A stretch of 24,000 nt of DNA from Candidatus Micrarchaeota archaeon (GCA_040755655.1 JBFMAP010000002.1:1398-25397); one strand, 5' to 3'; numbered from the stretch's first letter, positions 7,407 to 16,958 are shown. Made by a program: numbers and translations. The notes: generated from the sequence alone by a model not told the origin.

Positions 7407-8594
7407 ATGAACGAACACGCATGGAAAATAATTGAAAGTAGGAATTTCTGGCGCAGGGGACCGGAGACAGGGGTGCCTCGGGACGTAACAGAGGAGATAC
7501 TAAAGTACATGAATAGACCGGAGGTTTTATACCTTTACGGTCCAAGGCGGGCAGGCAAAACAACGGTGTGCATGCAGCTCATAAAACATCTTTCAAAAAA
7601 ATACGGGAGGACTTCCTCCGTATACATAAACTTCGAGGAGCCCGCGTTCTCGAGCATGCTGAGCAACGAATTCCTGGAGTGGATAGCGGAAAAATACGCG
7701 TCTGTTTTCTCAAGAAAGCCGAGGTTTGTATTCTTTGATGAAATTCAGAACGTCCCGGCCTGGGAGAAATTTGTCAGAGGCGTCGTGGATAGAAGGGAAT
7801 TTAAAATAATAGTTACCGGCTCCTCTGCAAAATTGCTCAGCTCGGAGTTTTCCACCTCGCTTGGAGGCAGGGGGTTCGGCTTTCGCGTTCTCCCGTTCTC
7901 CTTCATGGAGTTCAAAAAAGCCCTGAAAAAAGCAACTCTTTCGAACTATCTGAAAACCGGGGGTTATCCGGCAGTGGTTCTGGAGAAAGACAGGGAAAAA
8001 CAGGATAGGCAGCTTGAGGAGTATTTCGAGACGGCGATAACAAGGGACATAGCCATAAGGCACGAGGTGAGGGACGTTCCGACGCTGAGGACCCTGGCGG
8101 TATACGTTCTGACAAACTCCGGGAAAATGTTCAGCTACAACAAGCTGCGGGCCCTCACAGGCCTGTCCTTCGATGCGATAAAAACCTATCTCTCATATCT
8201 TGAGGAGGCTTTCGTGGTCTTCCAGGTCCCGTTTTTCTCCTACTCGTTAAAGAAAGCGCTTGAAAAACCAAGGAAATACTACGCTTATGACACGGGCCTG
8301 CAGGGAGTGCTCTCAAAATCTTTCAGCCCTGACCTTGGCAGACGCCTGGAGAACGCTGTCGCGGTTGAACTTGTGAGGAGAAACAAGGAGATCCAGTACT
8401 ACTCAAACAAAACCGAAGTGGATTTTGTCATAAAGGAGGGACTGAACCTGAGCGCGCTGAACGTATGCGCTTCCGAAAAAATTCCAAAAAGAGAAAAAAG
8501 CGGGCTGGAGGCTTTCGCAAGGGAGTTTAAAGTTGAAAACGTTCTCCTGCTTAATGGCGAAAAACGCGTCTCGAAATGGCTGCTGGGGGAATAA
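7407..8594 (+). CDS. AAA+ ATPase of the COG1373 / DUF4143 type
   Basis: Walker A YGPRRAGKTT, Walker B FVFFDEIQ, and an about 395-aa architecture typical of this family. Confidence 0.75.
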   Translation: MNEHAWKIIESRNFWRRGPETGVPRDVTEEILKYMNRPEVLYLYGPRRAGKTTVCMQLIKHLSKKYGRTSSVYINFEEPAFSSMLSNEFLEWIAEKYASVFSRKPRFVFFDEIQNVPAWEKFVRGVVDRREFKIIVTGSSAKLLSSEFSTSLGGRGFGFRVLPFSFMEFKKALKKATLSNYLKTGGYPAVVLEKDREKQDRQLEEYFETAITRDIAIRHEVRDVPTLRTLAVYVLTNSGKMFSYNKLRALTGLSFDAIKTYLSYLEEAFVVFQVPFFSYSLKKALEKPRKYYAYDTGLQGVLSKSFSPDLGRRLENAVAVELVRRNKEIQYYSNKTEVDFVIKEGLNLSALNVCASEKIPKREKSGLEAFAREFKVENVLLLNGEKRVSKWLLGE

Positions 8595-8843
8595 GCATGT
8601 ACACTAGTGGATGAGGAATGAAAAAAAGATTAAACCGGAAGAAAGTGTTTTTTGGGACATCTGCACGAAATTAACCGGACGCGGAAATTGGCTTTAGTAA
8701 CGGCGGGCTCGCAGATCGCGTGAGCTTTCTGCTTACACCCCCGTCCTATCAAAAGGGTCTGCTACCCTCGCCTCATATCGCCTCGTTTTGAGAGTGGCTT
8801 CGTCCTTAGATGCTTTCAGGTCTTATCCATCAGTGCTTTGCCC

Positions 8844-8872
8844 GGCGCGCGCTAAAAAACACGCGACGCGCC
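8844..8872 (-). repeat. GC-hairpin/oligo-U element, copy 1 (29 nt), near the 23S 3' end (about E. coli 2735)
   Basis: RNA sense is GGCGCGTCGCGTGTTTTTTAGCGCGCGCC. It has the same core as the copies at 9769 and 12039. Confidence 0.55.
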
Positions 8873-8998
8873 GTGTGGCTGCCCGGCAGTGCATTTCACA
8901 ACCGGTAGACTAGAGGCACCGAACCCCAGTTCCTCTCGTACTCAGGGGTTCTTACTCTCAGGCGATCAACACTTCTAGGAGATACTACCGAACTGTCT

Positions 8999-9036
8999 TT
9001 GTCGCCCTTCTGACGAAATAAAATTGTCATTAGGGT
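8999..9036 (-). other. 23S insertion, 38 nt, ORF-less (putative mini-intron), about E. coli 2595
   Basis: The conserved accgaactgtct|cgcgacgttctgaaccc (reverse complement of GGGTTCAGAACGTCGCGA|AGACAGTTCGGT) is split. The insert can pair CCCT/AGGG and TGAC/GTCA. Confidence 0.7.
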
Positions 9037-9160
9037 CGCGACGTTCTGAACCCAGCTCGTGTAGGTCTTTAATGGATGAACAACCCAACCATTGGCGGCT
9101 CCTGCACCGCCAGGATGACCTAAGCCGACAGCGATGTACCAAACCGCGGGGTCGATACGT

Positions 9161-9211
9161 ACAACTAACGCTAGTGACGAAACGAAAACCAGTCAACTAG
9201 CGAGAGTTTGG
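9161..9211 (-). other. 23S insertion, about 51 nt, ORF-less, about E. coli 2480
   Basis: There is extra sequence between gtcgatacgt and gtactctcgcccgcgacga, where archaeal 23S normally has only a few nt. It contains ctagtgac/gtcaactag-type pairing. Boundaries are uncertain. Confidence 0.5.
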
Positions 9212-9236
9212 GTACTCTCGCCCGCGACGAGCCTGT

Positions 9237-9292
9237 CTTGGGTCTCGTTAGAAACGCACTGGAAATTCCAGCGCTACGCGTAGCTAACGAGA
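9237..9292 (-). other. 23S insertion, 56 nt, ORF-less, inside GGGGATAA^CAGGCT (about E. coli 2450, PTC core)
   Basis: RNA sense reads CCCCGGGGGTAA|TCTCGTTAG...CTAACGAGACCCAAG|ACAGGCTCG. There is a 9-bp terminal stem TCTCGTTAG/CTAACGAGA. Confidence 0.7.
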
Positions 9293-9435
9293 TTACCCCC
9301 GGGGTAGCTTGTCTGACAGCTTGGACCCTCATTAAAAAGGTGCCAAGGTTCGTTAAGCCCGGCTTTCGCCTCTGGATCCCACGCGTTTAAGGATCCAGTC
9401 AGCCCTGCATTTGTCTTTAACCCTTAACGGCGGAT

Positions 9436-9481
9436 GTCCATACGCCGCTGACCACCCTACTAAAAACTGGTCATCGGCGTC
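9436..9481 (-). other. 23S insertion, 46 nt, ORF-less, about E. coli 2300
   Basis: The hairpin GGCGGGTCAGAA...ATCCGCCG carries 46 extra nt in its loop. These are self-pairing (ACGCCG/CGGCGT, TGACCA/TGGTCA). Confidence 0.5.
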
Positions 9482-9515
9482 TTCTGACCCGCCTAAGCAG
9501 AACATTGGGCGCCCT

Positions 9516-9560
9516 TGTTTCAAGCAGCGGGCGACATTTGAAAATTTGTTTGTCGCACGC
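9516..9560 (-). other. 23S insertion, 45 nt, ORF-less, about E. coli 2270
   Basis: CCCTCGATAAGGAATCG|...|AGGGCGCCC is normally a short closed hairpin. The insert has GCGACA/TGTCGC pairing. Confidence 0.55.
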
Positions 9561-9768
9561 CGATTCCTTATCGAGGGCGTACCGCCCCAGCCAAACTATC
9601 CATCTGCTGCTGTTCCGTAAAGGTGAGGGATATATCAATCGTCGAGCGGTGTTACACTTTCGCCTATCTGCAGCCCGAAAGCTGCAACTTAACGGCTCCC
9701 GCTTACGCTCCGCAACGGCCAACATATCTCAACAACAGACTATAGTAAAGCTCCACGGGGTCTTCACG

Positions 9769-9799
9769 CAGCGCGCGCTGAAAAATACGCGACGCGCTG
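9769..9799 (-). repeat. GC-hairpin/oligo-U element, copy 2 (31 nt), a few nt 5' of the GAAGACCCC block (about E. coli 2055)
   Basis: RNA sense is CAGCGCGTCGCGTATTTTTCAGCGCGCGCTG. It differs from the copy at 12039 by one base. Confidence 0.7.
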
Positions 9800-9946
9800 C
9801 TTCGTTTCCCCCTAGAAGTCCTCCGCATATTCACGGAGTAGTGAGTTCACCAGGTCCCAGATGGGGACAGTGGGAGGCTCGTTATGCCCTTCATGCAAGC
9901 CACCAATTAAGCGGCGAGGTATTACGCTACCTTAAGAGGGTCAGAG

Positions 9947-9983
9947 TATGGGGTTGCGTCTCCAGAAAAAATAGAGACTGCAA
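9947..9983 (-). other. 23S insertion, 37 nt, ORF-less, about E. coli 1905
   Basis: GGGGGTAA|...|CTCTGACCCTCTTAAGGTAGCG. Removing 37 nt restores the usual GGGGGTAACTNTGACCC spacing. The insert has a GTCTC/GAGAC hairpin. Confidence 0.6.
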
Positions 9984-10015
9984 TTACCCCCGCTCTTTGC
10001 CGGCGCTTTGCTCCG

Positions 10016-10130
10016 TTGGAACAGAGTCTCGTCTCGCCCTTTTTCTTTCTTGAAAGGAAAGAAGAATGCAGAGTTTCATTTTCTCTTTTTTGGCACCCTG
10101 CATTTTTTCTCTTTTCCAAAGAGAAAAAAG
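10016..10130 (-). other. 23S insertion or expansion, about 115 nt, low-complexity hairpins, about E. coli 1860
   Basis: This lies between CCGGTACGTCAAACCGCC and GGAGCAAAGCGCCGG, where archaeal 23S has an about 18-nt hairpin. It contains TTTTTTCTCTTT-GGA-AAAGAGAAAAAA and TGCAG...CTGCA stems. Confidence 0.55.
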
Positions 10131-11201
10131 GCGGTTTGACGTACCGGTAGTGAGCAGGCATCGCCCCCTATACTAGGCCTTAAGACTTTGCAGGGAGCTA
10201 AGTTTTTGATAAACAGTCGACCTCCCCTTGTCACTGCGACCTGCAGTTCTTGTAAACCGCAGGCATGGTTTGTCCCGAAGTTAAACCACTAACTTGCCGA
10301 GTTCCCTCACCTGAGTTCTCCTGCCACGCCTTGGCTTTTTAAGCCAGCAGCACCTGTATTAGTTCTAGGTACAATCTCGCGGGATCGAACCGGTTCCCTT
10401 TTCACTGGCTCAAGGAATTAGCTGAACCGCCTTGCGGCGGCCTTCCCGTCTTTAGGCTGTTTCTCCTCATAACGAGTCTCCGCAGCCTTGCGGCGGTTAA
10501 ACGGGATCTCTCCCGCTCGGCCTATCCCCAAGCGTCAGGAATCGGCTTTGTGTCGCCACGTCTACCCGCGGGGCACTGGAATATTAACCAGTTTCCCTTT
10601 TGCATCCGAGTAATTGGCTGGATGCTTAGGATTGGCTTACTCTTGGCTGACGAACGTTGCCAAGAAACCCGTGTGCTATGCGGCGTCCAGGATTCTCGCC
10701 TGGATTTGCTGTTACTAACACCAGGATATGCATTTCTGGTGGGTCCATCGGATCTCAAAACCCGACTTCTACCCCAGCAGAACGCCCTCCTACCAGATGA
10801 GCAGCGCAGCTGCTCCTCCAAGGTCTCGGCACCTGACTTAGCCCCGTACATCTTCGGAGCCCGTACTCTCGACTGGTCCGCTATTACGCGTTGTTTAAAG
10901 GATGGCTGCTTCTAAGCCTACCTTCCAGCTGTTTTGGAATAGAGACTCCTTCTGGCTTCGCACTTAGTCAGATTTTAGGGGCCTTAACCCTGGTCTCGGT
11001 CGTTCCCGTCCCGGCCTGTCAGCTTACCCGACAGAACCCTACTCTCGCCTTCTACGGTGATAATGAATTCGGAGTTTGACAAAACGGCGGACCCTCTCGG
11101 ATCCATTCCGCCAAATCAGTGCTCTACCTCATTATCCACCTCCAGCGAGGTCATCCTGAGGGATGCTTCGGAGGGGACCCGCTATCGCCAAGTTCGATTG
11201 G

Positions 11202-11235
11202 ATTTGACTGGGGAGCGCCTCGAGGCGCTCCCCAT
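11202..11235 (-). other. 23S insertion, 34 nt, ORF-less, about E. coli 812
   Basis: GGGGTGAAAG|...|CCAATCGAAC is split. The insert is the perfect hairpin GGGGAGCGCC-TCGA-GGCGCTCCCC plus short flanks. Confidence 0.6.
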
Positions 11236-12032
11236 CTTTCACCCCTAGGCGTAGGTCACCCGAGCGGATATACCAGCACCGGTTGCGGGCCTCCACCAAT
11301 CGGAAGATCGGCTTCGCCCTGCCCACGTCTAGATCACATTGGCTTCGGGTCTCAGAGAAGTGATTAATCGCACTCGACCGGCGCGCGGCGAATGATAAAA
11401 ACCGCCGAGCGCCGTCTTTCATACGACGCGCCTCACAATCGTTGCGCGCGTTCGCTTTCGCTACGCCTTTCGGCTCACCACTTCAATGAACTCCCTGGCT
11501 CTTGATTCAAGAAGATGGATGGAACCCTGATCCTCGCCCCTCGCTCGGAGGATTGCTCCCCCTCGCTTCGGGGCGCCTCAAATCTTTCAGGCTCCATCAA
11601 CCTGTAACCATTCAGTTTCAGGCTCTTTTCACACCCCTTTCGGGGTCCTTTTCAGCTTTCGCTCGCGCTACTTATGCGCTATCGGTCTCAAGTCTATATT
11701 TAGAGTTGGAGGTTAATCCCCCCGCGTTCGCGCCAGATACCCGACTGACGCTACTCACCGCGCCTAGTTCCTCCCGCGTTTGCCTACGAGGCTATAACTC
11801 TTTGTCGCGAGGCATTTCAGCCCACTTCGGCTCTGCGAAAGGATATATGACGCATCACATCTCCGCGCGAGTTGCCCCGCGGGATTCGAATCGCTCTAAG
11901 CGGCTTTCAGTCGCCCTTACTCACCGCATCCCAATTGGTTTCTTTTCCTGCGGGTACTAAGATGTTTCAATTCCCCGCGTGTTTATCCACTGCTGGACAT
12001 TCGGCAATCTTGGGTTCAAAGGCTGCCTGCGC

Positions 12033-12070
12033 CTGAGCCAGCGCGCGCTGAAAAAGACGCGACGCGCTGT
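12033..12070 (-). repeat. GC-hairpin/oligo-U element, copy 3 (31-nt core 12039-12069 within a 38-nt insertion), about E. coli 75
   Basis: GATAAGCTTGGGGTAG|ACAGCGCGTCGCGTCTTTTTCAGCGCGCGCTGGCTCAG|GCGCAGGCAGCCTTTGA. Removing it restores the usual GGGGnAGGCGCAnGCAGCC. Confidence 0.65.
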
Positions 12071-12323
12071 CTACCCCAAGCTTATCGCAGCTTGCCACGG
12101 CCTTCAATTACCTGAGCCCAGCCATCCCCTGAATGGATTGAACCACGTCCGTGTATTATGCGTGCAGATGTCTCTTCAAACACATTTCTTCCGTCATTGC
12201 GCGCGCCATATAGCGAGCACTGGGACTTCGTTCGAGAAAAACTCTCGAACTGCATTTCAAATCTCATTTACGTGAATAAATGAGCGCGAATTTCGTATGA
12301 ATTTATGGATGGACTCGGCGAGA

Positions 12324-12473
12324 TTCCGAACCGCGGAGGGGGTTCGAACCCCCTCCCCAGTTTCAGGATCCTCCTGACCCTCCCCCACGAGGGCAGAAAA
12401 TTTTCCCGTCCCCAAAAATATTTTCTTTTGGGGCATCGAAAGACCTTTTCTTTTCAAAAGAAAAGGGATTTCG
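12324..12473 (-). other. tRNA-Ala T-loop (about 59/60) intervening sequence, 150 nt
   Basis: It separates GCGAG-TTCAAA from T-CTCGC-CGAGTCC-A. It consists of four consecutive hairpins, including CCTTTTCTTTT/AAAAGAAAAGG and GGAGGGGG-TTCGAA-CCCCCTCC. Confidence 0.7.
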
Positions 12474-12495
12474 TTTGAACTCGCGGCCTCCTCCT

Positions 12496-12519
12496 CTTCT
12501 GCCGGAATTTTATTCCGGA
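12496..12519 (-). other. tRNA-Ala canonical (37/38) intron, 24 nt
   Basis: TCCGGAATAAAATTCCGGCAGAAG lies between G37 and A38 and contains a TCCGGAAT/ATTCCGGC hairpin. Confidence 0.7.
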
Positions 12520-12693
12520 CGCAAAGGAGGCGCTCTACCGCTGAGCTACGAGCCCATAAAATATTTCGGCTTCAAGAACGATTAAACGAACGAACGCTGC
12601 TTGCACTTATGTCGTTTAAATTTCCGATCAGGTTTCATCTCGAAAATTTAAGGAGGTGATCTATCCGCAGGTTCCCCTACGGATACCTTGTTA

Positions 12694-12744
12694 ATCGCCT
12701 TAAAAGCTGCAGCGAGTATATTTCACTGGCAACTTTTAAAGATA
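12694..12744 (-). other. 16S insertion A, 51 nt, ORF-less, about E. coli 1499 (inside the 1492R target)
   Basis: AAGTCGT|...|TAACAAGGTATCCGTAGGGG is split. The insert pairs ttaaaag/cttttaa and tgc/gca. Confidence 0.75.
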
Positions 12745-13027
12745 CGACTTAACCCCCCTCGCAAAGCTCTAGTTCGAAGACGCCAAAAAGCGTCGCCTCA
12801 CTAAAACCTTACTTGGGTGATTTGACGGGCGGTGTGTGCAAGGAGCGGGGACGTATTCACCGCGGGATGTTGACCCGCGATTACTAGGGATTCCAGCTTC
12901 ATGAGGGCGAGTTTCAGCCCTCAATCCGAACTTGGGCTGGGTTTGAGGGATTAGCTCCTCCTTTCGGAGTGGCAACCCGTTGTCCCAACCATTGTAGGCC
13001 ACGTGTGGCCCTGGAGATTTAGGGCAT

Positions 13028-13071
13028 GAGCGGATGTATCGCGCGTACGAATGTCGCGGGATAGGTCCTAT
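13028..13071 (-). other. 16S insertion B, 44 nt, ORF-less, about E. coli 1200-1205
   Basis: GACGGTAGGTCAGTA|...|ATGCCCTAAATC is split. Confidence 0.7.
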
Positions 13072-13180
13072 ACTGACCTACCGTCGCCCCCTCCTTCCTC
13101 CTACTTAACGTAGGCGGTCCCCACAGGGTGCTCTTCTTCCGGAGAAGAAGGTCGCAACTGTGGACGAGGGTCTCGCTCGT

Positions 13181-13753
13181 AACCGGACGATCAGAGCGCA
13201 AAAGCATTAAAGATGTTGCAGCATTTCTTTCGATTCCGCGCGCCTCACGAATTTCGCAATGAAATTCGCAAATTCGCGCGTGTTCATCACCAAAAGTTTT
13301 CCCTTGTTGAAAATGTTGTGAAAACCTAGCCGCTCGAGAAGAAGCGCGTCTTCCTTCGTGCCTCGCGCAATGAAAATTCCCCTTCCCATAATCCCACCGC
13401 GCGCATCGAAAATTCCAGCAAGAAACCGCGCGGAGTATTCATTCTTCCATCTGAAGAAATGAAGCTCCTCGCGCGCGATGTTCTGGAAAAATTTCCTGTA
13501 CGCGGAGTGATGGAAGTAAACCTCCTTCTCCTTCACCTGAATCTCGTTCGGTTTCGCGAGCCCGAGTCGCAGGGATTCCTTTATGAAAATCTCCTGCAGC
13601 GTGCTGCCCGCGGCCACGCCAATCCCCTTCGAGGATGGGCGCGCCTTCCAAATTCCGATGAGATACGCAAGTTCCGGAGTCAGTTTTATTTTCATCTTTT
13701 CACTCTCGAGTTTTTCATCTGGTTTTCATAAGTAAGACTGCGCTCTGAACGTT
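13181..13753 (-). mobile_element. 16S intron C, 573 nt, LAGLIDADG-encoding, about E. coli 1093
   Basis: AAGTCCGGCAA|...|ACGAGCGAGACCC is split. There is a 10-bp perfect pairing of the intron ends (13191-13200 tcagagcgca with 13739-13748 tgcgctctga). Confidence 0.9.
13207..13695 (-). CDS. LAGLIDADG homing endonuclease, compact double-motif (162 aa)
   Basis: Motifs LAYLIGIWKA and ARFLAGIFDARGG. ATG start. The ORF lies entirely inside intron C and in the same sense as the rRNA. Confidence 0.85.
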   Translation of the reverse strand: MKIKLTPELAYLIGIWKARPSSKGIGVAAGSTLQEIFIKESLRLGLAKPNEIQVKEKEVYFHHSAYRKFFQNIAREELHFFRWKNEYSARFLAGIFDARGGIMGRGIFIARGTKEDALLLERLGFHNIFNKGKLLVMNTREFANFIAKFVRRAESKEMLQHL

Positions 13754-13800
13754 TGCCGGACTTAACCGGACAGTTCGCACCACGAGCTGACGATGGCCAT

Positions 13801-13835
13801 TAGTGTTCCAGCAGAGCATACGCTCCGGTGGAATT
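13801..13835 (-). other. 16S insertion D, 35 nt, ORF-less, about E. coli 1052
   Basis: GAGGTGGTGC|...|ATGGCCATCGTCAGCTCGTG is split. Confidence 0.7.
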
Positions 13836-13951
13836 GCACCACCTCTCGGCTCGTCTGGCAAGATCTTTGGTCTGGCCTTCATTCTGCCGTCGCTCCAGGT
13901 AATGTTCCCGGCGTTGAATCCAATTGAACCGCAGCCTCCACCCCTTGTGGT

Positions 13952-14002
13952 ATGGGCGGGGAAAAATCAAAAAGTAATTTCAAAAAATTTGACTTCCCCC
14001 CA
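13952..14002 (-). other. 16S insertion F, 51 nt, ORF-less, about E. coli 932
   Basis: TTGGCGGGGGAGC|...|ACCACAAGGGGTGGAG is split. The insert has G-rich and C-rich ends around an A/T-rich centre. Confidence 0.7.
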
Positions 14003-14015
14003 GCTCCCCCGCCAA

Positions 14016-14047
14016 GTAAGGGGACTGGGTTTTGCAAACCCGTATCC
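14016..14047 (-). other. 16S insertion E, 32 nt, ORF-less, about E. coli 919
   Basis: AACTTAAAGGAAT|...|TTGGCGGGGGAGC is split. The insert has a GGGTTT-TGCA-AACCC hairpin. Confidence 0.7.
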
Positions 14048-14053
14048 ATTCCT

Positions 14054-14653
14054 TTAAGTTTGTTGGAGGAGAGAGTCAACGATTCGAACTTTTTTATGGT
14101 GTTCGAATGGAACAAGTGCAACAAATTTCTTGAAATTTGCTCGCGATGTTATGCAAAAACGCAACGTTCCCGATTTTTTGTCGGCAACGAAGATACGCAG
14201 CGTTTTCACGCCATATTTGTCGAGCCATCTCCGGATAAAATTAAGAGATTCTCGATTCTTCTGGCTGAAACCAATCACGTAGTTTCTTTTACTGGCGTCG
14301 CCCTCGGCATCGAAAAAGCCAGCGATATAATTCGCAATGACTTTATTCCTAGCTCTTCTAATTCTAGTCGGTGTTCTCCATTTTTCTTGTGGAGAAACGA
14401 ACTCGAAATCATTCCTGAAAACGTTGAACGCTTCCATAGAATAAAATCGAGCCCTGAACTGACCAGGTTTATATTCTAATATTGTGACGGTCTTTCCGAA
14501 AGTTTTCTTAACGCGCTTAGCAATCGAATGTACGAGCCATCTGTGGTTTTTTTCGTACCACACGATGGTGTAATTCCTGCTAGCGCGATTGTAGAAAACG
14601 CTTCCGTCACGAAGCGCGCCAACGAGATAAGCTAGGTCTTTGTCGAGGTGCAC
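14054..14653 (-). CDS. LAGLIDADG homing endonuclease, double-motif (about 199 aa from GTG 14653; the frame is open to 14719)
   Basis: Motifs LAYLVGALRDGS and IANYIAGFFDAEGD. There is no usable ATG (the only in-frame Met lies between the two motifs). The first plausible start inside the intron is the GTG at 14651-14653. The stop TAA (14054-14056) lies in the downstream exon sequence CTTAAAGG. Confidence 0.8.
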   Translation of the reverse strand: MHLDKDLAYLVGALRDGSVFYNRASRNYTIVWYEKNHRWLVHSIAKRVKKTFGKTVTILEYKPGQFRARFYSMEAFNVFRNDFEFVSPQEKWRTPTRIRRARNKVIANYIAGFFDAEGDASKRNYVIGFSQKNRESLNFIRRWLDKYGVKTLRIFVADKKSGTLRFCITSRANFKKFVALVPFEHHKKVRIVDSLLQQT

Positions 14654-14678
14654 ATAACTATTAAGACTCTCCCCTTTT
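14061..14678 (-). mobile_element. 16S intron G, about 618 nt, LAGLIDADG-encoding, about E. coli 908
   Basis: GGCCGCAAGGTTGA|...|AACTTAAAGGAAT is split. The intron ends pair 9/10 (14068-14077 with 14665-14674). Confidence 0.9.
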
Positions 14679-14718
14679 TCAACCTTGCGGCCGTACTCCC
14701 CAGGCGGCAGACTTAACA

Positions 14719-14757
14719 CTTGAGCCTGCGCGAGACGAAATTCGCGCGTCTCGTGCA
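14719..14757 (-). other. 16S insertion H, about 39 nt, ORF-less, about E. coli 865 (tentative)
   Basis: There is extra sequence between GTGCCGTAGCGTAGAC and TGTTAAGTCTGCCGCCTGGGG, containing a CGAGACG-CGCGAATTT-CGTCTCG hairpin. This region is naturally variable, so the call is weaker. Confidence 0.45.
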
Positions 14758-14837
14758 GTCTACGCTACGGCACTACAACAGCTCGAAGCTATTGTAACAC
14801 CACAGTCTGCATAATTTACTGCTAGGGCTACTCGGGT

Positions 14838-15551
14838 TTTCAGTATCACTTGAGAAATTTCGCCAATCTTCTTTTTTTCGATTGATGTTTAAGGGAGACG
14901 TGTTTTGCAAACTTCTGCAAATCATCTCTCCCATAGATATAAATCTCGTATTCGGGATTTTTATATCTCGTCCGGGTATAGTTGCTATATCCCACTCCGA
15001 TGCTACTCAAAAATTCGCCAAGAAATTCAAAGACGCTTTTTGAGGTGGTTGAGATGTTGAGTTCGGCTTGTCTTTTTTTGACGCATCCTTCTGCATCAAA
15101 AAGGCCTCCAACATATTCGGCCTGCAAAGACTTACTAAGTTTTTTCATATAAGAAGGTACATGCAAGTTCTGTCGAACTGCGCCTTTCGGCACTTCCATG
15201 ACTTCAACCAGAAACTGATACACCAATACACTCTTTGTATGGCTGTAATACGTGTTTCTGTTTATATCGTGGAACGTGTTTAAATTCACGCCAAAGACAG
15301 ACTTGAAAGCTCTTCTTATTGATTTATGGAACTCTCTGCTCTGCTCGGTGAAGAGTATTCTTCCGCCAGACATATTTCCGTCGCCGTGCAAAATGCCGAG
15401 TAGTCTGCACAGCTCAGGCGTAACGCTGGTTGGAAGATGAACCTTCAAAAGAGGCTTTTTTCGCCCTTTTTTCATAAGGTTTCTTACCCGGTGCTCTAAT
15501 CTCATGAAGAGATTTAGTCGAAAGTATTTATTAGCGTTTCTCAAGTGCGAT
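14838..15551 (-). mobile_element. 16S intron I, 714 nt, LAGLIDADG-encoding, about E. coli 794 (inside the 806R target)
   Basis: GGATTAGAT|...|ACCCGAGTAGCCCTAGC is split. There is an 11-bp perfect terminal stem (14847-14857 cacttgagaaa with 15537-15547 tttctcaagtg). Confidence 0.9.
14846..15505 (-). CDS. LAGLIDADG homing endonuclease, double-motif (219 aa from ATG 15505; 232 aa if the TTG at 15544 is used)
   Basis: Motifs LCRLLGILHGDGN and QAEYVGGLFDAEGC. Same sense as the rRNA. Confidence 0.85.
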   Translation of the reverse strand: MRLEHRVRNLMKKGRKKPLLKVHLPTSVTPELCRLLGILHGDGNMSGGRILFTEQSREFHKSIRRAFKSVFGVNLNTFHDINRNTYYSHTKSVLVYQFLVEVMEVPKGAVRQNLHVPSYMKKLSKSLQAEYVGGLFDAEGCVKKRQAELNISTTSKSVFEFLGEFLSSIGVGYSNYTRTRYKNPEYEIYIYGRDDLQKFAKHVSLKHQSKKRRLAKFLK

Positions 15552-15562
15552 ATCTAATCCGA

Positions 15563-15606
15563 TTTGAACTCGTTGGAGAAGACATTCAATTCTTCAACTC
15601 CGCCGA
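15563..15606 (-). other. 16S insertion K, about 44 nt, ORF-less, about E. coli 781
   Basis: GCTAGGAGAACGAA|...|TCGGATTAGAT is split. The boundary is ambiguous by 4 nt because of a TCGG repeat. The insert has an internal GTTGAAGA/TCTTCTCCAAC hairpin. Confidence 0.65.
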
Positions 15607-15660
15607 TTCGTTCTCCTAGCCTTCGTCCCTCACTGTCAGACGTGTTTTGGTCAAGCGCCT

Positions 15661-15690
15661 TGACGCTGCGCGCGCCCGAGCGCGCGCAGA
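15661..15690 (-). other. 16S insertion J, 30 nt, ORF-less, about E. coli 727
   Basis: CCAGTGGCGAA|...|GGCGCTTGACC is split. The insert is a CTGCGCGCGC-TCGG-GCGCGCGCAG hairpin. Confidence 0.7.
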
Positions 15691-15877
15691 TTCGCCACTG
15701 GAAGTCCTTATAGGATTACAGGATTTTACCCCTACCCCATAAGTACTCTTGACCTCCCCCACTCTCAAGCCCGCCAGTATTTCCTGCACGCCTTCAGGTT
15801 GAGCCTGAAGATTTCACAGGAAACTTAACGGGCCAGCTACGGACTCTTTAGGCCCAATATTCGTGGACACCACTTGG

Positions 15878-15920
<43 letters not shown>

Positions 15921-16112
15921 CCTTATTCTACAAGCGTCTTAAGCTTGTAAAAAGATGCTCGCGTGGAGCATCACTCAGAGTCCCCCTGTCACGCTTTCGC
16001 GCATTGCAGAGGTTTCGCGCCTGCTGCATCCCGTAGGACTAGAACCCTTGTCTCAGTGTTCTTCTCGGGGCTCCAACTCCCATTGCCCCCACTGATTATC
16101 GGCTTGGTGGGC

Positions 16113-16328
16113 TTGCACTGCGAGACCAAAAAACAAAAATCAAAACAAACACCGCAAACTCGAAACTCGAACCCAACAAACAAAAACAAAAAATCACGCG
16201 CTCGCCAACTCGGGTTGGCTCGCGTCATTCGGCGCGCGCGCCTCGAGGCGCGTCTTTTGTTTTGTTGTTGGTGTTGTTGTCGTTGTTTGTGGTGTCGTTG
16301 AGGTTGGTGATTCATTTTGGTCGCGCAT
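16113..16328 (-). other. 16S insertion L, 216 nt, ORF-less long imperfect hairpin, about E. coli 265
   Basis: GGTAGTTGGTGGGGCAACG|...|GCCCACCAAGCCGATAATCAG is split. One arm is CA-rich and the other GT-rich, and the ends pair (accaaaa/ttttggt, gcgagacc/ggtcgcgc). Confidence 0.75.
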
Positions 16329-16958
16329 CGTTGCCCCACCAACTACCTAATCAGGCGCAGTCTTATCCCATGGCAGACCCGGCTGCATTTCACCGGGCTG
16401 TTTAAATCAGGAAGCGTTCCAGCATCCCTGGTCTATCGGGTGTTAGCCTCAGTTTCCCGAGGGTATCCCCGTCCGCGGGGTAAATTGACTACGTGCTACT
16501 GAGCCGTGTGCCGCCCTTCGAAGCTCGAAGAGCAGACTTGCATGGCTTAATCGGACTCTGATAGCAGTGCCCTCCAGCAGGATCAACTGGAGTTTGCACA
16601 CTATGTGCATTCCGCAAGCTGTAAGGCGGATTCGCACTCACATACGTCGTTCCTTGTTTGGTTCTTGAAGCCTGAAGTCTAATCCAAAAGAGCTTGGATT
16701 ACCATTTTTCCTAGAACGCGTTCTTTGAGGAGCGCGTTCGATTATGTACGCTGCAGTGGAAGTGAAAATTTCATCGCACGAAAACTCAGAATTCGCGCTC
16801 TTTACCGCCGGAAACTGCAGCGAGTTTTCGGTAGCATATCTTTTATAGAGCAAGGTTTAAATACGTTTTCCTCTCCCTCGGTGGCGCTCAAAAAACACGA
16901 AGAGTACAATTATATCGCGCAAACTGTATTTTGGTAAAATTATTGCAAAATCTAATTA

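Follow-up and report, generated by a model that had tools for sequence, protein, structure and literature searches.

The window analysed here, a stretch of 24,000 nucleotides (nt) from Candidatus Micrarchaeota archaeon (GCA_040755655.1 JBFMAP010000002.1:1398-25397), carries on its minus strand a 23S ribosomal RNA (rRNA) gene that is interrupted by 12 short inserts. All 12 are very probably bulge-helix-bulge (BHB) mini-introns, which, as far as can be judged from the sequence, would be removed from the transcript by the splicing endonuclease, with the exons joined by RtcB to give a normal 23S rRNA of 2.9 kb. Related genomes carry empty-site alleles of these inserts, every junction is compatible with a BHB motif, three of the sites are occupied in relatives by long versions with an open reading frame (ORF), and several of the inserts form sequence families. 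Coordinates are positions in the window throughout, and the inserts are written in RNA sense on the minus strand.

When the window is aligned with the Rfam covariance model for archaeal large-subunit (LSU) rRNA (LSU_rRNA_archaea, RF02540), the match runs from 12151 to 8676 on the minus strand and covers the model end to end (positions 1-2987) with 2133 bits, and alignments of sub-ranges resolve 12 interruptions of tens of nt each within well-aligned, often universally conserved strands. The inserts measure 33-108 nt each and sum to 574 nt, which is 16.5% of a gene with a GC content of 54%; since the longest has only 108 nt, none is able to hold a gene. Their removal at the predicted sites restores a contiguous conserved RNA, and the spliced sequence of 2902 nt shows no other indel of at least 6 nt against the 23S of the comparator L005, except for an intron of L005 and a 15-nt expansion. 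The archaeal character of this stable-RNA gene is apparent from the archaeal LSU model, from the archaeal-type 16S flank and processing stems, and from the closest genomes, which are Micrarchaeota. A preceding sequence-only reading had proposed at least 11 short insertions in the 23S gene, some of them in peptidyl-transferase-centre (PTC) sequence and none coding for protein, whose subtraction would leave a normal archaeal 23S of 2.9-3.0 kb; these proposals stand, with covariance model, empty sites and BHB geometry bringing the number to 12, and the large inserts in the full-length RF02540 alignment lie where that reading had placed them. Its ranges drawn by eye were less uniform in quality: those at 12033-12070, 9947-9983, 9436-9481 and 8999-9036 are exact or equivalent by sliding, and the others deviate by 1-12 nt. 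Thus, the insert given as 9516-9560 is real and shifted by 3 (9563-9519), that given as 10016-10130 occupies 10028-10135, those given as 9769-9799 and 8844-8872 comprise only the hairpin core of 38-nt introns, and the extra sequence of about 65 nt recognised at 11370-11440 is a discrete insert of 43 nt.

The exact boundaries come from comparison with other genomes. Comparator 23S genes were taken from loci where the 23S adjoins a phosphoenolpyruvate (PEP) carboxylase gene. In the window, an archaeal-type PEP carboxylase gene lies 2.3 kb downstream of the 23S, and its best relative (93% identity) is found in L001, a Candidatus Micrarchaeota metagenome-assembled genome (MAG); the next matches, at about 60%, belong to Micrarchaeota, Anstonellaceae and Burarchaeum, which assigns the window to a DPANN archaeon of the Micrarchaeota. 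An exact look-up of the window protein gave no record. All comparators are metagenome assemblies, L001 deriving from a co-assembly, and they comprise, besides this close relative, L005 and L006 (23S of 2933-2934 nt), L003 (3206 nt) and L014 (4057 nt, including a group I intron recognised by Rfam). Two other loci were uninformative about the 23S inserts: in L083 (P0001; PEP carboxylase 89% identical) the contig ends 19 nt before the site of intron 12 (L083 5348-5533), and L086 (66% PEP carboxylase identity) has no 23S nearby.

L001 is syntenic with the window, and over the first 2.8 kb its 23S is 95-100% identical to that of the window per 200-nt block; it is nevertheless precisely without introns 1, 2, 4, 5, 6, 8 and 12. 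The 30-nt flanks are identical at five of these empty sites, with one mismatch each at 11415-11373 and 10135-10028. Three inserts occur in both L001 and the window (11235-11203, 9563-9519 and 9209-9157), and at two further sites, 9293-9237 and 9036-8999, the L001 inserts are far longer than those of the window. The more distant L003, L005, L006 and L014 are without all window introns, the sole occupied site in L005 and L006 being site 7, where a different insert is found. At 11 sites the predicted ligation products are identical to empty-site alleles of the relatives (L001, L003, L005, L006, L014), and at site 10 a single base differs; the empty sites therefore fix all 12 boundaries, leaving 0-4 nt for sliding. 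The use of L005 and L006 as intron-free references was abandoned as wrong, both carrying their own intron at site 7.

The junctions were then assessed for BHB geometry. A free scan of the whole gene for strict motifs returned 419 matches, mostly due to chance, and was too noisy, so the test was anchored on the empty-site junctions. The layout scored consists of helix h, a 4-nt central strand, a 3-nt bulge cut after its second nucleotide, the inner helix h', a second 4-nt strand with its bulge, and h again, and each empty-site junction was compared with the full set of 625 offset combinations within +/-12 nt. All 12 junctions fit this 3-4-3 frame, with two 3-nt bulges, three or four pairs in the central helix and an inner helix of 4-11 bp, in agreement with the suggestion of the sequence-only reading that BHB motifs be sought there. 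The empty-site junction is the best of the 625 in seven of 12 introns, second in three, third in one and ninth in one (Table 1). Scores range from 11 to 18, and a random junction of the same length within the gene reaches at least 13 with a probability of 0.002. Unconstrained minimum free energy (MFE) folds of each intron with 12-nt flanks likewise show an inner hairpin set off from an outer helix by an internal loop or by 3-nt bulges, with MFE z-scores of -2.4 to -5.5 against shuffled controls for nine of the 12 and weaker values (-0.5 to -1.8) for introns 1, 7 and 12. Two comparisons bear on the conservation of this geometry: the inner helix at site 5 contains one covarying pair (C:G in the window, U:A in L014), and site 7 harbours two unrelated intron sequences with the same geometry, CGGCG/CGCUG in the window and AUGCGC/GCGCAU in L005.

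An internal positive control is provided by the processing stem of the 23S gene. Long inverted repeats of the archaeal processing-stem type bracket both rRNA genes (8642-8667/12161-12186 for the 23S, 12568-12593/16647-16672 for the 16S), and the BHB of the 23S stem has the best score, 19, with four of four central pairs, an outer helix of 3 bp and an inner helix of 11 bp; A-rich bulges are common to this motif and to those of the introns.

Several alternative registers were considered and discarded. A 77-nt BHB inside insert 4 (10120-10044) had a good score but consists of low-complexity U/A pairing, and the empty site of L001 gives 108 nt; a 33-nt BHB inside insert 7 (9557-9525) is ruled out by the 45-nt empty site of L003 and L014. 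In insert 9, the register [AA|U]...[AA|G] would leave two surplus nt in GGGGGUAACAGG and is ruled out by the outgroups, and in insert 10 the junction GUAC|GUAUCGAC yields a product less close to the outgroups than that of the BHB register.

Table 1. The 23S rRNA gene, its processing stem and its 12 predicted mini-introns. Bulges are in brackets, with a bar at the predicted cut. E. coli positions are from a multiple alignment with E. coli rrlH and are approximate at variable sites; helix and strand names follow the 23S secondary structure. Rank is that of the empty-site junction among 625.
Feature	Coordinates	Strand	Length (nt)	Position and description	BHB motif	Rank	State in relatives
23S rRNA gene	8676..12151	-	3476	13 exons and 12 introns, spliced 2902 nt; Rfam RF02540			
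23S processing stem 5' arm	12161..12186	-		inverted repeat; half of canonical BHB, predicted cleavage after 12175	UUUG[AA|G]		
23S processing stem 3' arm	8642..8667	-		inverted repeat; other BHB half, predicted cleavage after 8649	CAAA[AA|A]		
Intron 1	12070-12033	-	38	~E. coli 85, domain I hairpin; 38-nt family	GGGU[AG|A]...GCUC[AG|G], strict hBHBh', 8-bp inner helix, score 18	1	no counterpart in L001 and four other relatives; empty site GGGGUAGGCGCAGG, as predicted product
Intron 2	11415-11373	-	43	~E. coli 645, within GAAA-capped hairpin; distant 38-nt-family member	UGAA[AG|A]...GUCG[AG|U], relaxed, weakest of 12	9	missing in L001 and outgroups
Intron 3	11235-11203	-	33	E. coli 784/785 (GGGGUGAAAG|UCCAAUC)	UGAA[AG|A]...GUCA[AA|U], 11-bp inner helix	1	carried by L001; missing in L003, L005, L006, L014
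Intron 4	10135-10028	-	108	~E. coli 1854, helix 68 region; A/U-rich	CGUC[AA|A]...GACG[AG|A], central helix 4/4	1	missing in L001 and outgroups; empty site GUACGUCAAACUCUG, as predicted product
Intron 5	9984-9948	-	37	E. coli 1912/1913, helix 69 loop	GGGG[UA|A]...CCCC[AU|A]	1	missing in L001, L003, L005, L006
Intron 6	9800-9763	-	38	E. coli 2060/2061, A2058-A2062 strand (GAA|GACCCC; slides within 2057-2061); 38-nt family	AACG[AA|G]...CGUG[AA|G]	2	missing in L001 and outgroups
Intron 7	9563-9519	-	45	~E. coli 2272, helix 81 loop	AAGG[AA|U]...CUUG[AA|A]	3	carried by L001; missing in L003, L014; different 45-46-nt insert at same site and with same geometry in L005, L006
Intron 8	9481-9436	-	46	E. 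coli 2310/2311	UCAG[AA|G]...AUGG[AC|A], outer helix 6 bp, inner helix 6 bp	1	missing in L001 and outgroups
Intron 9	9293-9237	-	57	E. coli 2450/2451 (GGGGGUA|ACAGGCU), peptidyl-transferase core, PTC GAUAAC strand	GGGG[UA|A]...CCCA[AG|A]	2	far longer in L001; outgroups read GGGGGUAACAGGCU
Intron 10	9209-9157	-	53	E. coli 2477/2478, helix 89 apex	GUAC[CC|A]...GUAC[GU|A]	1	100% identical in L001; missing in L005, L006, which read GAGAGUACACAUCGAC; predicted product GAGAGUACCCAUCGAC
Intron 11	9036-8999	-	38	E. coli 2597/2598, helix 93	GUCG[CG|A]...CGAC[AA|A]	1	far longer in L001; outgroups empty
Intron 12	8874-8837	-	38	~E. coli 2727, domain VI; 38-nt family	AGCC[AC|A]...GGCA[AA|G]	2	missing in L001 and outgroups; empty site GCAGCCACGCACUG, as predicted product

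Splicing of the 12 inserts would proceed as follows. In the primary transcript each insert would fold into a hairpin (the inner helix h'), and the central helix H would form between 4 nt near the 3' end of the intron and 4 exon nt that precede the 5' splice site by two positions, leaving on each strand a bulge of 3 nt, in most cases A-rich, with the outer helix usually supplied by a nearby rRNA helix. The tRNA/rRNA splicing endonuclease, the same enzyme that would cut the BHB of the 23S processing stem, would then cleave after the second nucleotide of each bulge, and an RtcB-type ligase would join the exons into a 2902-nt 23S with intact helix 69 loop and 2060, 2450 and 2597 regions; the released intron might take the form of a circle, as is often so for archaeal BHB introns. 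The expectation of the sequence-only reading that the inserts within GAUAAC|AGG and GAA|GACCCC are removed from the RNA is thus one that BHB junctions and empty-site products both favour. The relaxed form of most motifs is expected to need an endonuclease of broad specificity, by analogy with the epsilon2 enzyme of the micrarchaeote ARMAN-2, which cleaves relaxed BHB motifs (PMC3239211); endonucleases acting on such motifs are of the (alpha-beta)2 or epsilon2 types.

It is important to stress the points that weigh against this interpretation. A strict hBHBh' motif is present in intron 1 only, the 11 others being relaxed; six of the central helices have three of four pairs, mismatches often part the outer from the central helix, and in most introns 0-2 outer pairs are strictly adjacent to the latter. 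Introns 2 and 7 have weak BHB motifs, and the MFE fold of intron 2 favours a competing pairing. The predicted product at site 10 is one base off the outgroups, having C where these have A. Neither an endonuclease (EndA) gene nor an RtcB gene is found inside the window, and in vivo cleavage and ligation, like the type of enzyme, are points that we infer, the former two on the basis of the motif and of what is established for archaea. Finally, L001 is a co-assembled MAG, whose intron-less state could be a mosaic of strains.

Excision of the inserts without religation would divide the 23S into as many as 13 fragments, which base pairing and proteins would keep in association, as occurs with bacterial intervening sequences removed by RNase III. 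We consider this improbable, although all inserts form hairpins at exposed loops or helix ends, fragmented rRNAs are known from bacteria and organelles (discussed for the candidate phyla radiation, CPR, in PMC11270868), and the sequence gives no proof of ligation. The geometry of the junctions is that of the archaeal splicing-endonuclease motif, unlike the long duplex cleaved by RNase III, the ends left by archaeal endonuclease cleavage are ligated by RtcB (PMC4496867), and nicks at 2450/2451 and 2060/2061 would lie inside the catalytic centre.

The same two sites bear on the even less plausible notion that the inserts are retained in mature rRNA as lineage-specific expansion segments. Some sites do lie in variable regions (near E. 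coli 85, 645, 1854 and 2727), but five are in universally conserved functional strands (1912/1913, 2060/2061, 2450/2451, 2477/2478 and 2597/2598) and are not expansion-segment sites; the domain V strands, which the sequence-only reading had seen as interrupted, are indeed split. Moreover, seven of the inserts are missing from a relative with 95-100% identical exons, and BHB-compatible junctions are present at all inserts. A decaying rRNA pseudogene or an assembly artefact with accumulated small repeats, for which the extreme insert load, the heavily interrupted 16S and the restriction of close comparators to metagenome assemblies might speak, is hardly credible for a gene that scores 2133 bits with exons 95-100% identical per 200-nt block to L001, retains intact core nucleotides and processing stems with canonical BHB, and has five inserts in common with the independently assembled L001, and decay would not put every insert in BHB frame.

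Other classes of element fit less well than spliced BHB mini-introns. With regard to self-splicing, a search of the window at the gathering threshold gave no match to Intron_gpI or to group II; the same search detects the group I intron of L014, and a ribozyme core requires more than about 200 nt, compared with the 33-108 nt of the inserts. As to miniature inverted-repeat or palindrome-associated transposable elements (MITE/PATE type), the repeats at the junctions are of 0-4 nt and differ between copies, with no constant target-site duplication, and a site-specific 3' tail complementary to the upstream exon is a feature of the RNA level.

The sites in domain V offer some additional observations. 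At site 9, the junction that the sequence-only reading had written as 'GGGGGTAA|ACAGGCT' contains one A too many, the intron-less sequence of the lineage being GGGGGUAACAGGCU, and its 'GGGGGUAA' is explained by the fact that the Micrarchaeota 23S genes examined carry G at the position of E. coli A2448: this nucleotide is G in the window (9294-9300) as well as in L001, L003, L005, L006 and L014 (GGGGGUAAC), and A in the Rfam archaeal consensus. Furthermore, L003 and L014 have an insert of 252-318 nt after GCGAGAG, near E. coli 2472-2473 and 5 nt upstream of the site of window intron 10, and these inserts gave zero Rfam matches at the gathering threshold.

With respect to their origin, introns 5, 9 and 11 form one group. 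At site 9, L001 has an intron of 671 nt (10288..9618) with the termini of window intron 9 and a 210-aa LAGLIDADG_3 ORF on the rRNA strand; at site 11, L001 has one of 723 nt (9417..8695) with the termini of window intron 11 and a 235-aa LAGLIDADG_3 ORF on the same strand; and at site 5, an intron of 604 nt in L014 shares its termini with window intron 5 and encodes a 197-aa LAGLIDADG_3 ORF, again on the rRNA strand. On account of the common termini, and of the ORFs in the long versions, the three window introns are deletion relics of 604-723-nt LAGLIDADG homing-endonuclease introns. This pattern of ORF-containing and ORF-less introns has a parallel in CPR bacteria (PMC11270868). The site-5 intron of L014 (at 1912/1913) belongs to a composite region, L014 4342-5236, in which it is separated from the Rfam group I intron by a 12-nt exon (ACUCUGACCCUC).

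A second group is made up of introns 1, 6 and 12, each of 38 nt, which share a core of 27 nt (three matches versus zero expected in shuffles; pairwise z of 7.3-9.1), with intron 2 as a distant member (z of 4.2-5.8 to the other three). Within this family a stem pair of intron 12 covaries (CAG...CUG to CGG...CCG), and the last 6 nt differ in each copy (GCUCAG, CGUGAA, GGCAAA), each being complementary to the local exon; the flanks of these three copies show no common target motif and no target-site duplication. Introns 1, 2, 6 and 12 are missing from L001 and from every outgroup, and parsimony thus favours their recent gain in the lineage of the window. More generally, the seven introns that are missing from L001 are probably recent gains, precise loss in L001 being the alternative. 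A search for the 38-nt core in the genome contig collection gave no match, and the sole match among metagenome contigs, on an unrelated GC-rich contig without rRNA, was discarded as due to chance. Intron 8 and the intron that L005 and L006 carry at site 7 are homologous (z of 6.2, with an exact 12-nt block, ACCAGTTTTTAG) and make up a second mini-intron family, whose location in the rRNA thus differs between the window and other Micrarchaeota.

A run of 4-6 U is present in the hairpin loop of nine of the 12 introns (1, 2, 5, 6, 7, 8, 10, 11 and 12), for instance at window positions 12049-12053, 9778-9782 and 8854-8859; the site-7 intron of L005 and L006 has one likewise, and intron 4 contains a U6 in its stem. 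In archaea, oligo-T tracts of the sense strand act as termination signals. The recurrence of U runs in mini-introns may reflect common ancestry or a protein-binding loop.

Taken together, the evidence points to a recent spread of mini-introns without a homing endonuclease, both the direction (gain rather than loss) and the mechanism being inferences. More tentatively, the 31-nt core (C-R-GCGCGUCGCGU-N-UUUUU-Y-AGCGCGCGC-Y-G) might be a non-autonomous, homing-endonuclease-independent mobile BHB intron that has colonised three or four sites of the 23S since the split from L001, the second family having likewise moved between sites among Micrarchaeota, a reading that we regard as possible rather than probable. 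Archaeal rRNA introns are usually thought to enter only via an encoded homing endonuclease (authors' reply, PMC4496867). Were the core indeed mobile, it would be direct evidence for RNA-guided insertion of archaeal introns into rRNA, for example by reverse splicing and copying into DNA, and polymorphic strains would constitute a natural system for testing such an RNA-guided route.

Mini-introns of this kind are already known, previously mainly from rRNA genes of Thermoproteales, and it is their density here that is unusual; a literature search of an incomplete library yielded no comparable mini-intron load in one archaeal 23S and no paralogous BHB mini-introns within an rRNA gene. The 16S genes of Thermoproteales contain hairpin BHB introns of <50 nt, which share loci with remnants and with LAGLIDADG introns, and these 'HP' introns (Jay & Inskeep 2015, PMC4496867) resemble the window inserts in being ORF-less, 30-60 nt long and composed of a single hairpin with a BHB at the junction, as well as in their location in conserved rRNA regions alongside LAGLIDADG introns or their remnants at the same loci. 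They differ in that the host of the window is a DPANN micrarchaeote with an rRNA gene of moderate GC content (54%), not a hyperthermophilic crenarchaeon, and in that the window has 12 such introns in one 23S, several of them paralogous copies and most with relaxed motifs.

Classical archaeal rRNA homing introns encoding LAGLIDADG proteins include those of Desulfurococcus, Pyrobaculum and Aeropyrum, and the 1912, 2450 and 2597 regions, in which introns 5, 9 and 11 lie, are typical homing targets. The window introns at these sites match the relatives' 604-723-nt introns in termini and position, yet they have lost the whole ORF, with about 20 nt kept from each end, so that they would not be capable of homing on their own. 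Another comparison is with the paralogous tRNA introns of Thermoproteales, which Fujishima et al. (2010; cited in PMC3239211 and PMC4090602) reportedly attributed to 'intron transposition': there too, nearly identical BHB cores are found within one genome at different positions of structured RNA genes, with no mobility protein encoded, and host enzymes tolerate relaxed motifs. In the window, by contrast, the targets are three or four sites within a single 23S gene, and the 6-nt 3' tail differs in each copy. Finally, introns, including those of group I, have been reported from rRNA genes of Micrarchaeota and other DPANN archaea (PMC6125680, PMC5498576); the DPANN LSU group I introns (Nawrocki et al. 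2018, PMC6125680) share phylum and gene with the window inserts and occupy nearby sites (LSU/1923, 1931 and 2593), and in L014 a group I intron lies 12 nt downstream of the site-5 BHB intron, but the length of the window inserts falls far below that of a ribozyme core, and none of them matches the Rfam group I model.

The interest of this locus lies in the fact that one gene unites an extreme intron load, relics of endonuclease-ORF loss and a multi-copy mini-intron that is missing from a nearly identical relative, so that the spread of ORF-less BHB introns becomes directly testable with two natural alleles. If all 12 inserts are spliced, ribosome biogenesis in this reduced-genome DPANN archaeon would rely on a minimum of 12 accurate rounds of cutting and ligation for each 23S molecule, and an endonuclease of broad specificity is probable. 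On the practical side, interrupted rRNA genes disrupt primer sites, rRNA-based classification and binning.

The rest of the rRNA locus shows comparable complexity. The 16S rRNA gene lies upstream of the 23S (12651-16593, minus strand) and measures 3943 nt against a model of 1478 positions. It contains two LAGLIDADG_3 ORFs (14054-14719 and 14846-15544), an ORF of 162 aa without Pfam match (13207-13695) within a 574-nt insert, and several ORF-less inserts of about 32-217 nt, among which a GC-rich hairpin at about 15666-15690 resembles the mini-introns of the 23S in style. The spacer between both genes (about 12311-12555, minus strand) encodes a tRNA, probably tRNA-Ala with anticodon UGC, which ARAGORN does not detect and whose score is a mere 29.5 bits. 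Inspection by eye suggests an intron of about 24 nt at the canonical position and an insert of about 160 nt in the T-loop, the 3' half of the T-arm and the acceptor (CUCGCCGAGUCCA) being located near 12311-12325; a 91-nt piece of this insert (12418-12328) is missing in L001. On the other side of the 23S, a gene for an AAA_14/DUF4143 ATPase (7407-8594, plus strand) is placed next to the 23S 3' end, with a GNAT gene on its other side. L001 has no counterpart of it, its GNAT gene abutting the 23S, and the AAA_14/DUF4143 gene looks like a strain-specific insertion beside the rRNA operon.

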